Both the position numbers and the translations under genes were made by a program. The notes beneath the pieces were generated by a model. That model was given only the letters and a program-made list of their open reading frames with translations, made no database searches and was not told where the DNA came from. Of a stretch of DNA of 64,000 nt, positions 6,661 to 30,680 are shown one piece after another. Every line of letters starts with the position of its first letter. Position 1 is the stretch's first letter. Origin of the DNA: a phage. The DNA lies in sequence record PZ809289.1. The stretch is one strand, 5' to 3'.

Positions 6661-7398
6661 ATGGCAAAGGAATTCCATTATAATTACTTGACTGTAATAA
6701 AAACCCATAAGGCAAATTATTACTATGTAGGTAAACACTCCACTGATAATCTTTCAGACGGGTATTATGGAAGTGGTACGGTAGTTAAAAATATTTGTAA
6801 AAAGCATCCTTATAAAACTCGTATATTAGAATTCTTCGAATCTGAAGAAGAGGCGTATGCCGCCGAAATTCCTTTAGTTGAAAAGGCTAAATTAAAATAT
6901 GGTAAGCATTCTTTAAATTTTGCTGATGGCGGAAGAGGTAAAAAGAAAGGAACCAAATTATCTAATTTAACTAAACAGAAAATGTCTAGGTCTAGAAAAG
7001 GAGTTAAATGGAGCAAAGCCAGAATAGAAGCTTCTAAATTCACCACTTCTAATAAAGGTTTAAACCATTATTCCAATAGAATAGGATTTAGTGATGAGCA
7101 TAAAGCTAAAATAGGATTAGCCTCTAAAAAATTAAAAGGATTTAAACATAGCGCTGAAACCATAGAAAATATGAGTAACGCCAAAAAGGGCAAAAAGAAT
7201 CCCATGTACGGTAAAAAGGGCGCTATGGCAGGAAAACCTTCTCCTATAAGAAACGAATCTTGGAAATTTTACGATGAATTAAAACTCTTATGGGAAGAAT
7301 CCAATAAGCCTTCAGCATATATGTTTAAAAAGATAGCTATAAGCAAAGGTTATCCTAATTGCTCTTATAGAGGAGTTGTATTTAAATGGCAAGCTTGA
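6661..7398 (+). CDS. GIY-YIG homing endonuclease (Seg-like) with NUMOD3-type repeats
   Basis: YNYLTVIKTHKANYYYVGKHS GIY-YIG core; repeated NPMYGKKG-type motifs; inserted just upstream of tk. Confidence 0.75.
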   Translation: MAKEFHYNYLTVIKTHKANYYYVGKHSTDNLSDGYYGSGTVVKNICKKHPYKTRILEFFESEEEAYAAEIPLVEKAKLKYGKHSLNFADGGRGKKKGTKLSNLTKQKMSRSRKGVKWSKARIEASKFTTSNKGLNHYSNRIGFSDEHKAKIGLASKKLKGFKHSAETIENMSNAKKGKKNPMYGKKGAMAGKPSPIRNESWKFYDELKLLWEESNKPSAYMFKKIAISKGYPNCSYRGVVFKWQA

Positions 7399-23982: not shown

Positions 23983-24600
23983 ATGAAATACATCACATAC
24001 CTGACAATATATTCCGGGACTAAGCTTCCACCGTTTTATATAGGGTCTACCACTTTAGAGAAGCATTCAAAAGGATATCACGGGAGTGTCCTTTCTAAAG
24101 CATATAAAGAAATCTATAAAAATGAGCTTTTAGAGCATCCAGAATTATTTGACTCATGTATTGTAAGTGAACACCCTACAAGAGAAGAGGCTTTAGAAGC
24201 TGAAAGAATGTACCAGTTAAGAACGGATGCGGCCCAAAATCCTCTATTCTTTAATAGGGCTGTCGCAGCTCCTAAAGGATTCTTTGGGCTTTCGCTACCT
24301 AAAGAGCAACACCCTCTTTACGGCTCTCATAATGCTAAAGGGTATATTCATTCCTATAATCCTATTACATTAGAACAAACCTTTGCACCTACAGTCCCCG
24401 AAGGATATGTAGAAGGTCGTTCACCTAATTATAAAGCATCTAGTCATAATAAGGGCAGGAAGTGGTATAATAACGGAATAGAACATAAACTGATTAACCC
24501 ATCTAATATTCCTGATGGGTGGGTCAAAGGTAAACTTCCTGGCTCTGCTTCTAAAGCAGCCTCCAAAATGTGGGAACGGATACGTAATGAAAATTCTTAA
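23983..24600 (+). CDS. GIY-YIG homing endonuclease (Seg-like), paralog of 56748
   Basis: MKYITYLTIYSGTKLPPFYIGST GIY-YIG core; NUMOD-like HPLYGSHNAKG; sits where T4 has alpha-gt (between 55 and 47). Confidence 0.75.
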   Translation: MKYITYLTIYSGTKLPPFYIGSTTLEKHSKGYHGSVLSKAYKEIYKNELLEHPELFDSCIVSEHPTREEALEAERMYQLRTDAAQNPLFFNRAVAAPKGFFGLSLPKEQHPLYGSHNAKGYIHSYNPITLEQTFAPTVPEGYVEGRSPNYKASSHNKGRKWYNNGIEHKLINPSNIPDGWVKGKLPGSASKAASKMWERIRNENS

Positions 24601-25609
24601 TACGGGTGACTGGCACCTTGGAGTGAAGAACGACGACCCTTGGGTGCAAAATATTCAATTGGCAGGCATTAAAGACGCCATCAATTATTCTAAAGCAAAT
24701 GGTATCACTGTCTGGATTCAGTATGGTGATATTTTTGATGTTCGTAAAGCAATTACTCATAAGTGCATGGAATTTGCCAGACATATTTCAGATTTGCTTA
24801 AAGAAAATGGCATTACCATGTATACTGTTGTTGGTAACCATGATGCACACTACAAAAATACCTTGACACCGAACGCTGCTTCTGAAGTTCTGGGTAAATA
24901 CGACCATATCAAGGTTATTGAGAAACCTACTACGGTTAATTTTGATGGTACAGAAATTGATTTGATTCCATGGATGTGTGAAGAAAACACGACCGATATC
25001 ATGGACCATATCAAAAATACTACTGCCGATTTCTGTATTGGCCACTGGGAATTAAATGGTTTCTATTTCTATAAAGGAATGAAATCACATGGTTTAGAAC
25101 CTGATTTCCTTAAGAAGTATAAGCAAGTATGGTCTGGTCACTTCCACACCATTTCTGATGCAGCAAACGTCAAGTATATTGGTACGCCATGGACCCTGAC
25201 TGCAGGTGATGAGAACGACCCTCGTGGCTTCTGGATTTTCGATACAGAAACCCATAAAATGGATTTCATCATCAATGAAACTTGTTGGCATCGTAAGATT
25301 CATTATCCGAATGCGACTATCGATTACAAAGATTTTACAAATATTGCGGTTCGTGTTATAGTCGATAAAATTGATGACGGGCTTACCAAGTTCGAATCTG
25401 AACTTGAAAAGGTTGTTCACTCTTTACGTATTGTGTCTAAGGTAGATAACAGTGTTGATATCGATGATTCTGAAGAGGAAGATGAAGTTAAGTCCCTCTT
25501 GGATATGATGTATGATTATATCGATGCCCTTCCTGATGGCCACACTGAAGACGATGTTAAAGCCCTTAAGACTATGGCCGCACAACTTTATAATGAGGTT
25601 ACACGATGA
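24587..25609 (+). CDS. 47: Recombination nuclease subunit gp47 (Mre11/SbcD-like)
   Basis: MKILNTGDWHLGVKNDDPW... calcineurin-like phosphoesterase motifs (GDWHLG, GDIFD, GNHD, GHWE...H); track ORF 24515 begins upstream in frame. Confidence 0.9.
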   Translation: MKILNTGDWHLGVKNDDPWVQNIQLAGIKDAINYSKANGITVWIQYGDIFDVRKAITHKCMEFARHISDLLKENGITMYTVVGNHDAHYKNTLTPNAASEVLGKYDHIKVIEKPTTVNFDGTEIDLIPWMCEENTTDIMDHIKNTTADFCIGHWELNGFYFYKGMKSHGLEPDFLKKYKQVWSGHFHTISDAANVKYIGTPWTLTAGDENDPRGFWIFDTETHKMDFIINETCWHRKIHYPNATIDYKDFTNIAVRVIVDKIDDGLTKFESELEKVVHSLRIVSKVDNSVDIDDSEEEDEVKSLLDMMYDYIDALPDGHTEDDVKALKTMAAQLYNEVTR

Positions 25610-28433: not shown

Positions 28434-29132
28434 ATGAAATTCTCTAAAGAAACTCTGAACATTCTGAAAAACTTCTCCAGTATTAACCCAGGTATCATGC
28501 TTAAGCCTGGTAACACTATTCTAACTCGTTCAGTAACGGGTGCAAGTTATGGTGAAGCTACTGTAAGCGATACCTTTGATATCGAAGCCGCAATCTATGA
28601 TTTGAACGGCTTCTTAAGTATTCTGTCATTGGTATCTGATAGTGCTGAAGTTTCGGTAAGTGAAGACCAAACCACCTTAATTATTAAAGACCAACGTTCA
28701 ACTATTAAATGGCCTATTGCCGACCCAAGTACAATTGCATTCCCAAGCAAAGCTATTCCATTCCCGGTGGCTGAAGTTATTTTTGACCTTAAAGCCGAAG
28801 ATTACCAACAGTTGATGCGTGTGTCCTCTGGATTGAGTATTGATACATTTGCTATCACTGTAGACAACGGTAAAATTGTAATCAATGGCTACAAACAAGT
28901 TGATGATAAGGACCTGGCACGTCCATTGTATTCCTTAGTGGTTGCAGACCATGATGGTCCTGAATTCAAATTCATTATCAACAAAACTAATATGAAAATG
29001 ATGCCTGCCGATTACCATGTATTGTTATGGGCTCGTGGTGAAGGTCAGGACGCTCGTTTCGCAGCCAAGTTTGAAGGTTCACAAGCTTCTTATGTATTGG
29101 CTATGGAAGCAGGCTCAAGCCACTCGTTCTAA
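28434..29132 (+). CDS. 45: Sliding clamp gp45
   Basis: MKFSKETLNILKNFSSINPGIMLKPGNTILTRSVTGASYGEA...AIYDLNGFLSILSLV... collinear with T4 gp45 (about 230 aa). Confidence 0.95.
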   Translation: MKFSKETLNILKNFSSINPGIMLKPGNTILTRSVTGASYGEATVSDTFDIEAAIYDLNGFLSILSLVSDSAEVSVSEDQTTLIIKDQRSTIKWPIADPSTIAFPSKAIPFPVAEVIFDLKAEDYQQLMRVSSGLSIDTFAITVDNGKIVINGYKQVDDKDLARPLYSLVVADHDGPEFKFIINKTNMKMMPADYHVLLWARGEGQDARFAAKFEGSQASYVLAMEAGSSHSF

Positions 29133-29710
29133 TGTATATATGTTATCATAATACGATAACCAACACTAAAACCAAGTGTGTCTATCATTATTTTGGTAGA
29201 CACCGTGTTACTGCTGAAGAATACTACGGTACAGGTAAGTTTGTTAAGAAATGCAAACGAGAAAATGCTATTACTCCAGGTCTTTGGGAGTTTTGTGTTG
29301 AAGTTATCCATACAGTGGATACGTTTAAAGAAGCCAAGATTATTGAAGAAGAGCTTGTTAAAGAAGGCATATCAAAATATGGTATCCTTTGTGTTAATAA
29401 GAATCCTGGTGGTGATGGCGGTGTGGATTACCACACCGAAGAATCTAAACGTAAAATGTCAGAAACTAGAACAGGAAAATCAAGAATATTTTCCGAAAGT
29501 CATAAAGAAAATTTAAGTAAACGAGCCAGAAAATACTCTGATGTTTGGTCCGAACCTGTATATTCAAATCTTAAAACCATTTGGCTGGAAACAGGTATGT
29601 TAAAACGCGGACGGTTTAGTACGCTTTTACAAAAATATGGGTATAATTATTCTGCGAATGAATTGAATAAAATTGTTAAACATTTTAATGAGGAAAATAA
29701 TAATGAGTAA
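29132..29710 (+). CDS. GIY-YIG-like homing endonuclease inserted between 45 and 44
   Basis: YICYHNT...VYHYFGRH core like the other Seg-like ORFs; NUMOD-like NPGGDGG...SRIFSESHKENLSKRA; TAATG coupling. Confidence 0.6.
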   Translation: MYICYHNTITNTKTKCVYHYFGRHRVTAEEYYGTGKFVKKCKRENAITPGLWEFCVEVIHTVDTFKEAKIIEEELVKEGISKYGILCVNKNPGGDGGVDYHTEESKRKMSETRTGKSRIFSESHKENLSKRARKYSDVWSEPVYSNLKTIWLETGMLKRGRFSTLLQKYGYNYSANELNKIVKHFNEENNNE

Positions 29711-30680
29711 AGTAGTAAATGGTTTAACTATTAATGAAAACGACTTCATGTGGGAACAGAAATATCGTCCAGGTACTTTATCTGAGTGTATTCTGCCTGC
29801 TCATGATAAAGAAACCCTCCAAGCCATTGTTAATAAGGGCCTAATCCCTAACATTATCCTAGTCTCTGCTTCACCAGGCACAGGTAAAACTACCGTAGCT
29901 AAAGCATTGTGTGCTGATACAAATTCAGATATGCTTTTTGTTAACGGTTCCGACTGCCGTATTGATTTCGTTCGTAATGAACTTACTCGTTTTGCATCTT
30001 CCAAATCTATCGAAGGTAAACGTAAGGTAATTGTTATCGACGAATTCGACCGTGCTGGTGTTGCTGAAGCTCAACGTCACCTTCGTTCGTTCTTAGAAGC
30101 CTATTCCTCAAACTGTTCTGTAATTATTACAGCAAACAATATTGATGGTATTATCGGCCCACTTCAATCCCGTTGTCGCGTTATTAAATTTGGTGAAGCC
30201 ACTCCAGCTGACCAAACATCCATGATGAAAGAAATGATTCATCGTGCTGTAGCGATCTGTAAAAACGAAAATATCGAAGTCGAAGACCTTAAAGTTATTG
30301 CTGCTTTAGTTAAACAAAACTTTCCTGATTTCCGTAAAACAGTTAACCAACTGGACCGTTACTCATCCAGTGGTAAAATCGATACAGGCATTTTGAGTAT
30401 TGTAATGAATACCAATTCGCCTATCGATGAAGTAGTGGCTGCACTTAAAGATAAAAACTTTAAAGAACTCCGTGCATTAGCTCCACGCCATGTCAATGAC
30501 TATTCCAACTTTATTATGACGCTGGCTAACGAACTCTATGGTAAATTGCCTGGGCCAAGCATTGTTAGAATGTATGAAATTGTCGGTGAAAATAACCAAT
30601 ACCACGGTATTGCGGCTAACCCAGAAATTCACATGACTTATCTGTTCATCCAACTTGCTCTGGAGCTCCAATGGCTATAA
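29703..30680 (+). CDS. 44: Clamp-loader large subunit gp44 (AAA+)
   Basis: ...WEQKYRPGTLSECILPAHDKETL...SASPGTGKTTVAKALC...VIDEFDR...SNCSVIITANN... collinear with T4 gp44; track ORF begins 29673. Confidence 0.9.
   Translation: MSKVVNGLTINENDFMWEQKYRPGTLSECILPAHDKETLQAIVNKGLIPNIILVSASPGTGKTTVAKALCADTNSDMLFVNGSDCRIDFVRNELTRFASSKSIEGKRKVIVIDEFDRAGVAEAQRHLRSFLEAYSSNCSVIITANNIDGIIGPLQSRCRVIKFGEATPADQTSMMKEMIHRAVAICKNENIEVEDLKVIAALVKQNFPDFRKTVNQLDRYSSSGKIDTGILSIVMNTNSPIDEVVAALKDKNFKELRALAPRHVNDYSNFIMTLANELYGKLPGPSIVRMYEIVGENNQYHGIAANPEIHMTYLFIQLALELQWL

Follow-up and report, generated by a model that had tools for sequence, protein, structure and literature searches.

T4-like phages are full of free-standing homing endonuclease genes, which are regarded as a main cause of mosaicism and marker exclusion in this group. 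To our knowledge, only a handful of such enzymes have been characterised, all from T4 itself. The Seg endonucleases of T4 are proteins of about 190–225 amino acids (aa) with a Seg-type GIY-YIG domain (Y-x-G-S/T-G, GG-x-GG), followed by a NUMOD3-like basic linker and, at the C-terminus, a helical domain for DNA binding, and their genes lie between conserved genes, overlap their neighbours and occur sporadically among close relatives. With a linker that is putative in its case, the same holds for an open reading frame (ORF) of 192 aa with an ATG start that lies at positions 29132–29710, on the plus strand, of a stretch of 64,000 nucleotides (nt) of phage DNA (sequence record PZ809289.1; the whole stretch is called the window below). 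The source phage is a T4-like coliphage of the genus Dhakavirus, and the ORF is wedged between gene 45, encoding the sliding clamp, and gene 44, encoding the large subunit of the clamp loader. Judging from comparative sequence analysis, the ORF is probably an intact Seg-like GIY-YIG homing endonuclease gene, active or active until very recently, which would spread by intronless homing at the 45/44 junction and take a rewritten start of gene 44 along. Elements of this kind are ordinary, but the locus has not been described before; the literature covered, which was incomplete and did not include the genome papers of the carrier phages Bp7 and VR20, contained no earlier report of an endonuclease gene at this junction.

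The ORF is not a chance open frame. With a stop-trinucleotide frequency of 0.066 in the window, a given stretch of 192 codons would stay open by chance with p of about 2e-6, and homologues with 60–78% aa identity show a ratio of non-synonymous to synonymous substitution rates (dN/dS) of 0.12–0.22. Close homologues appear to be very rare: a search of 5.8 billion proteins resulted in three clusters at 59–78% identity and one distant NUMOD3 protein. A profile made from four close sequences recovered 280 proteins from 1.84 billion representatives, only two of them at E < 1e-30 and many of the distant ones with NUMOD3, and a second profile search tied the family to proteins with PF01541 (GIY-YIG), PF19835 and PF07460. 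The four-sequence profile also aligned with T4 SegA over residues 5–135 (28 bits) and with both domains of SegF. PHROGs placed the ORF in phrog_314, 'homing endonuclease' (9.2e-17). The Pfam NUMOD3 model reached 17.0 bits, under its cut-off of 20.4, while family relatives reach 37–77 bits. An Arpin match in the Pfam and NCBIfam scans was judged spurious.

The predicted protein begins with a GIY-YIG nuclease domain, continues with a putative NUMOD3-type linker and ends with a helix-turn-helix domain for DNA binding. The catalytic domain (aa 1–95; 29132–29416, plus strand) was delimited using an AlphaFold model based on an alignment of 63 sequences, invariant alignment columns and a hidden Markov model (HMM) alignment to I-TevI. 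The model has a predicted local distance difference test score (pLDDT) of 88–97 over residues 1–90 and displays the GIY-YIG core fold of three strands and two helices in the order strand-strand-helix-strand-helix (strand 2–11, strand 17–25, helix 36–47, strand 52–62, helix 65–86). It superseded a first model from four sequences (pLDDT 60), for which Foldseek returned meaningless matches from the Protein Data Bank (PDB); a PDB sequence search with the shallow four-sequence profile A2 gave no match. The 63-sequence profile matched the full catalytic domain of I-TevI (1LN0, E = 1.2e-3; 1MK0, E = 4.4e-3) and, weakly, the I-TevI DNA-binding domain 1I3J (E = 0.028) at the NUMOD3-like linker. An earlier note on this DNA, made without database searches, had called the ORF GIY-YIG/NUMOD-like, and these matches together with the near-invariant motif residues uphold that description.

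The motif residues of the catalytic domain are Y5, Y20-F21-G22, H24, Y31-x-G33-T34-G35, E72, N89 and G93-G94, numbered as in the window ORF. We assessed their conservation in two family alignments of 35 and 63 sequences (A4 and A5). Y5, G22, Y31, G33, G35 and N89 do not vary in either alignment. Y20 is invariant in A5 and nearly so (at least 90%) in A4, E72 is invariant in A4 and conserved in at least 90% of A5, and H24, S34 (T34 in the ORF), G93 and G94 are nearly invariant across the family alignments. In the profile alignment Y5, Y20, G22, E72 and N89 correspond to Y6, Y17, G19, E75 and N90 of I-TevI. The spacing between Y5 and Y20 is 15 residues, versus 11 in I-TevI. Inspection of about 60 family N-termini revealed two sub-types, one with the classic Seg pattern (x-Y-x-Y-K-I-T-N ... 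K-x-Y-I-G-x-H-S) and the other, to which the ORF belongs, with F-x-Y-H-T-x-I ... H-Y-x-G-K-H-S-T and a first hairpin longer by 3–4 residues. In the raw HMM alignment with SegA, Y5 lies two residues out of register, as if the catalytic tyrosine had been lost; we rejected this reading because the N-termini and the larger alignments show that Y5 is invariant and that the longer hairpin is common to the subgroup.

The putative NUMOD3-like motif (aa 101–116; 29432–29479, plus strand) lies in a flexible linker with pLDDT 59–75 and rests on the sub-threshold Pfam NUMOD3 match and the weak profile match to 1I3J. It is followed by a three-helix homeodomain-like helix-turn-helix domain (aa 141–190; 29552–29701, plus strand), the presumed DNA-binding and target-recognition module, as found in Seg-like enzymes. 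The part of the linker just before this domain (window 29506–29575; residues about 126–148) is a replaced or hypervariable patch, which reads ENLSKRARKYSDVWSEPVYSNLKT in the allele of the window and Bp7 and LNCSKWQRSE(I/V)W(Q/N)xY(E/D)EL, four residues shorter, in the alleles of MX01 and VR20.

The distribution of the gene among relatives is patchy, with about 6 carriers among about 40 dhakaviruses and one among about 17 gapriverviruses. Over the region 28434–30680 the window is 98.8% identical to phage Bp7 and 98.2% to PSD2002. Our dhakavirus comparison set consisted of phage records at least 90% identical over the 45–44 region, and besides the window only Bp7, PSD2002, vB_EcoM_005, MX01, SHP1 and LQ5 carry the ORF. 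In the GenBank records of Bp7, MX01 and PSD2002, and in that of VR20 from another genus (see below), it is labelled 'unknown' or 'hypothetical protein' and not as an endonuclease. In about 40 other records of the set (including JS98, IME08, QL01, WG01, KIT01, ABTNLS3 and E33) the alignment falls into two pieces and the site is empty. Most relatives have in place of the ORF a hairpin spacer of 56–61 nt (60–61 nt in JS98 and ABTNLS3), with the hairpin AGGGAGGAATTTCCTCCCT in JS98. Outside the genus, a 60%-identical copy occupies the same junction in VR20, the sole carrier among 34 records of the genus Gaprivervirus, and the metagenomic homologues P0002 and P0003 likewise lie between genes 45 and 44. 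A scan of IMG/VR yielded no carriers other than vB_EcoM_005 and VR20, both already known. Distant homologues with 26–34% identity occur in Klebsiella phages at unrelated loci. As all close copies sit at 45/44 and the distant ones elsewhere, the 45/44 copies form a locus-specific lineage. The gene is thus free-standing between two conserved genes and present or absent at one site among close relatives.

Comparison of the endonuclease DNA with its flanks points in the same direction. The window, Bp7, PSD2002 and vB_EcoM_005 share the gene with 100% identity, while their flanks differ by 1–3%, and the copies of MX01 and LQ5 are 98.6% identical within flanks of 94–96% identity. The flanks of the carrier LQ5 are 99.0–99.2% identical to those of the non-carrier ABTNLS3, and the carrier PSD2002 is classed in the species 'Dhakavirus wg01', the type phage of which, WG01, is without the gene. 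The two dhakavirus endonuclease alleles differ by a synonymous divergence (dS) of 0.85, versus 0.135 for gp44 and 0.37 for gp45. The dN/dS over the catalytic domain is 0.10–0.25, indicating, with the values for the whole ORF, purifying selection throughout. The ORF is AT-richer than its neighbours, with a GC content of 33.3% and 24.4% at third codon positions, against 39–41% and 32–40%. The foreign composition, the purifying selection and the identical DNA in diverged flanks are signs of a mobile element that is, or was until recently, active. The earlier note had proposed that a free-standing element invaded the operon and that the 45/44 junctions of insert-less relatives be compared. Most close relatives proved empty there, the ORF is not a conserved non-nuclease gene of all relatives, and the proposal is further supported by the copy at the same junction in VR20 and by ORF DNA that is more conserved than its flanks. 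Between LQ5 and ABTNLS3, five single-nucleotide polymorphisms fall within 75 nt downstream of the junction and none in the 366 nt upstream, a cluster compatible with a short co-conversion tract.

The insertion is accompanied by a change in gene 44. Alignments A1 and A3 and the comparison of LQ5 with ABTNLS3 define a 'long-type' gene 44 5′ end (29703–29747, plus strand; MSKVVNGLTINENDF), which has six codons more than that of endonuclease-less dhakaviruses (MLTVNNNEF). The long gp44 N-terminus is found in all endonuclease carriers and is inherited along with the endonuclease gene. Compared with JS98 and ABTNLS3, the carriers lost the entire hairpin spacer and the first 27 nt of gene 44, and the ORF with the 45-nt gene 44 start replaces the lost stretch, gp44 beginning with MSKVVNGLTINENDFMWEQ and not MLTVNNNEFMWEQ. 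In alignments A1 and A3 the six extra codons resemble the original start and seem to be a diverged duplicate of it, with MxxV-N-G followed by LT(I/V)N. The insertion in VR20 is cleaner: the hairpin GGGGCTTCGGCCCC and GGAG are kept upstream of the ORF, and relative to SP18 only about 18 nt of spacer were replaced. The gapriverviruses without the endonuclease are dimorphic, seven of them (SP18, 212, TH41, UPEC01, TH57, VR25 and P8) with the long start MTTVINGLTVNESDF and about 17 with the short MLTVNDKEF (compare SP18 1055–1100 with P896 1053–1080), and the two types are intermixed by overall similarity to VR20. Because it is found in these seven phages too, the long gp44 allele is not strictly diagnostic of homing.

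The proposed mechanism of spread is modelled on T4 SegF, SegG and SegB. If one cell is infected both by a carrier and by a related phage whose 45/44 junction is empty, the enzyme would cleave the empty allele at the spacer or the gene 44 5′ end, or close to one of these. The break would be mended by T4-type recombination-dependent replication with the carrier genome as template, and the endonuclease gene would be copied to the recipient together with the adjacent long-type gene 44 start, i.e. by intronless homing with co-conversion. The replaced spacer and the rewriting of the first ~27 nt of gene 44 are proposed to make the carrier allele immune to its own enzyme, and the 3′ end of the ORF would preserve the ribosome-binding region of essential gene 44. 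A more tentative idea, which we consider possible but rather doubtful, is that the six-codon-longer gp44 N-terminus (MSKVVNG-LTINEND) is a homing footprint and an immunity allele at once. The nuclease target would then be located in the short-type start of gene 44 or in the ribosome-binding region belonging to it, and the long allele would resist cleavage, travel with the gene between Gaprivervirus and Dhakavirus and outlive the loss of the gene in the seven gapriverviruses. If this were true, the locus would be a natural record of a cycle of invasion, fixation, decay and loss, in which a selfish nuclease rewrote both the N-terminus of an essential replication gene and the region that controls its translation.

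The gene is closely packed with its neighbours. Gene 45 (28434–29132, plus strand; Pfam gp45-slide_C 1.5e-34 and DNA_PPF 3.9e-14, phrog_223 2.9e-78) ends with the stop codon TAA at 29130–29132, and the ATG of the ORF occupies 29132–29134, forming a TAATG stop/start overlap (29130–29134, plus strand) of 1 nt. Downstream, the stop codon of the ORF at 29708–29710 lies beyond the ATG of gene 44 (29703–30680, plus strand; Pfam Gp44_lid 2e-36 and Gp44_C 2e-29, phrog_168 4.2e-127), giving an overlap of 8 nt, and GAGG at 29690–29693 precedes this ATG. In the Bp7 annotation gene 44 starts at an in-frame ATG 15 nt upstream (29688), with an overlap of 23 nt; we prefer 29703 because it is homologous to the start in JS98 and T4 and stands at the usual distance behind GAGG. 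T4 has no ORF at this point: its genes 45 and 44 are neighbours, with 50 nt of spacer, including a UUCG hairpin, between them. The coordinates and overlaps of the ORF given in the earlier note, the identity of both flanking genes and their adjacency in T4 were all confirmed.

Regarding expression, the window shows no Shine-Dalgarno sequence upstream of the ORF start (AGCCACTCGTTCTAATG) and no T4 late-promoter motif TATAAATA near the ORF. Scans for sigma-70-type promoters and terminators around the ORF gave nothing convincing, and RNA folding of 29090–29190 revealed no notable structure (z = -0.43). In the lack of its own Shine-Dalgarno sequence, late promoter or start structure in the window, the most economical reading is translational coupling, and the ORF is probably translated at a low level by termination and reinitiation at the gp45 stop TAATG. 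The gaprivervirus copy in VR20 has its own GGAG beside the hairpin. Translational coupling to the upstream gene has been discussed for the homing endonuclease MobE (PMC2988022). At the other end, the putative translation-initiation region of gene 44 (TAATGAGGAAAATAATAATG; 29686–29705, plus strand) lies inside the last endonuclease codons, and in every copy these codons (F-N-E-E-N-N-N) constitute the gene 44 ribosome-binding region. The sequence is very close to its T4 counterpart GAATGAGGAAATTATG. RegA operators are A/U-rich, e.g. AAAUUAUGAUU and AAUAAUAAUAA (PMC3014915), and the region described here resembles the RegA operator of T4 gene 44.

Several observations weigh against an intact homing endonuclease, and most of them would fit a catalytically dead or decaying remnant that no longer moves and is kept only for the gene 44 ribosome-binding region or because its loss harms gene 44 expression. 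The Pfam GIY-YIG model (PF01541) gave no match to the ORF at E up to 1, and the NCBIfam scan gave none either, GIY-YIG included. Going by the matches of relatives, PF01541 misses many Seg-like proteins, and several of the relatives linked by profile carry PF01541 or PF19835. R27 of I-TevI, the arginine that canonical GIY-YIG enzymes conserve after the second strand, falls within six residues that are inserted relative to the Seg-like profile and missing from the whole Seg-like family, and it has no aligned counterpart in the ORF. Near this position the ORF has R23 and R25 around the nearly invariant H24, and SegA (GTHS) and SegF (GKHE) are in the same state. Decay does occur: in vB_EcoM_005 (MK295203; L005 2199–3635, corresponding to window 29132–30680) a deletion of 112 nt takes out the endonuclease DNA-binding domain together with the ribosome-binding site and ATG of gene 44, and endonuclease codons 1–155 run on in frame into gp44, the whole being annotated as a single 'clamp loader' of 478 aa. 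M155 of the endonuclease, at the fusion junction, could act as a new gp44 start (MLLNGLTINEND...). This deletion is either a natural intermediate of decay or the product of misassembly; vB_EcoM_005 has a genome of 155 kb, versus about 170 kb in relatives. The last nine codons of the ORF are also constrained by the gene 44 start region. The low dN/dS nevertheless extends over the catalytic domain, all family-invariant motif residues are kept, copies with 100% identity in backgrounds 1–3% apart indicate very recent transfer, and T4 SegA and SegF, which are experimentally active, share the family architecture including the gap at the R27 segment. We therefore regard a dead remnant as unlikely. 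The long gene 44 start in the seven endonuclease-less gapriverviruses also lowers its value as a sign of homing.

A different possibility is that the nuclease is active but serves mainly for competition between phages (marker exclusion) or brings some other benefit to the phage that carries it, its patchiness resulting from ordinary recombination of the replication module and selection instead of homing drive. [quoted passage not shown] However, the presence of the gene at exactly one locus in two genera, with a rewritten flank travelling along, is as expected of site-specific, break-induced gene conversion, and exclusion and homing are two readouts of one cleavage event; we hold this explanation to be improbable. 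The ORF might also be a conserved accessory gene of the replication operon without nuclease function, as its apparent translational link to gp45 and gp44 and its uninformative annotation in the four GenBank records mentioned above could suggest. Such a gene would hardly be missing from T4 and from the majority of dhakaviruses and gapriverviruses, have an atypical composition and display the GIY-YIG fold and motifs, and this explanation appears very improbable indeed. A Seg-like homing endonuclease, intact and active or recently so, agrees best with the whole of the evidence.

The 45/44 gene has company. An ORF of 245 aa at window 6661–7398 (plus strand) is a second Seg-like GIY-YIG candidate (profile A5, E = 1e-31; Pfam NUMOD3, 4.2e-13), and since it too matches profile A5, the window carries at least two free-standing endonuclease genes of the Seg-like family. 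An ORF of 205 aa at 23983–24600 (plus strand), which overlaps the start of the ORF 24515–25609, matched the Seg-like profile weakly (E = 2e-5) and had no Pfam match; it may be a diverged or decaying endonuclease gene. In addition, Bp7 (L002 44–760) and MX01 (L003 45–761) have on the minus strand an annotated 'putative homing endonuclease' between genes 46 and 45.2. This gene is absent from the corresponding site in the window (about 27744) and from JS98, PSD2002 and ABTNLS3, where 46 and 45.2 overlap directly, so the 46/45.2 junction represents a second polymorphic endonuclease site within 1.5 kb.

The 45/44 locus offers an unusually complete natural series, with near-isogenic carrier and non-carrier phages (LQ5/ABTNLS3 and PSD2002/WG01), two diverged alleles, a second genus, an endonuclease-less and possibly immune 'long' allele, and a truncated copy. 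The element sits in the core replication operon without breaking it, as it would borrow its translation from gene 45 and has the ribosome-binding region of gene 44 within its own coding sequence. For phage engineering and for therapy cocktails with dhakaviruses, it predicts a biased inheritance of the replication-gene region in mixed infections.

The likeness to the T4 Seg enzymes does not extend to close sequence similarity. Our comparison covered SegA, SegF and I-TevII, and any statement on the closest Seg protein is limited to these. The identity to SegA and SegF is low, tblastn at E = 1e-5 gave no match in T4, the hairpin in the subgroup of the ORF is 3–4 residues longer (signature Y-H-T/N-x-I ... 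H-Y-x-G-K/R-H), and the 45/44 locus, occupied in the window, is empty in T4. I-TevI (PDB 1LN0, 1MK0 and 1I3J) is encoded by the intron of the T4 td gene, whereas the ORF is not intron-encoded, lacks the R27/H31 segment, displays no evident zinc finger and shares only about 13% sequence identity with it. The MobE gene of Aeromonas phage Aeh1 is comparable in that it, too, is lodged between essential genes and seems to depend on upstream translation for its expression (PMC2988022). However, the MobE enzyme is of the HNH type and the insertion of its gene splits nrdA, whereas at 45/44 both flanking genes are intact and only the N-terminus of gp44 is altered.

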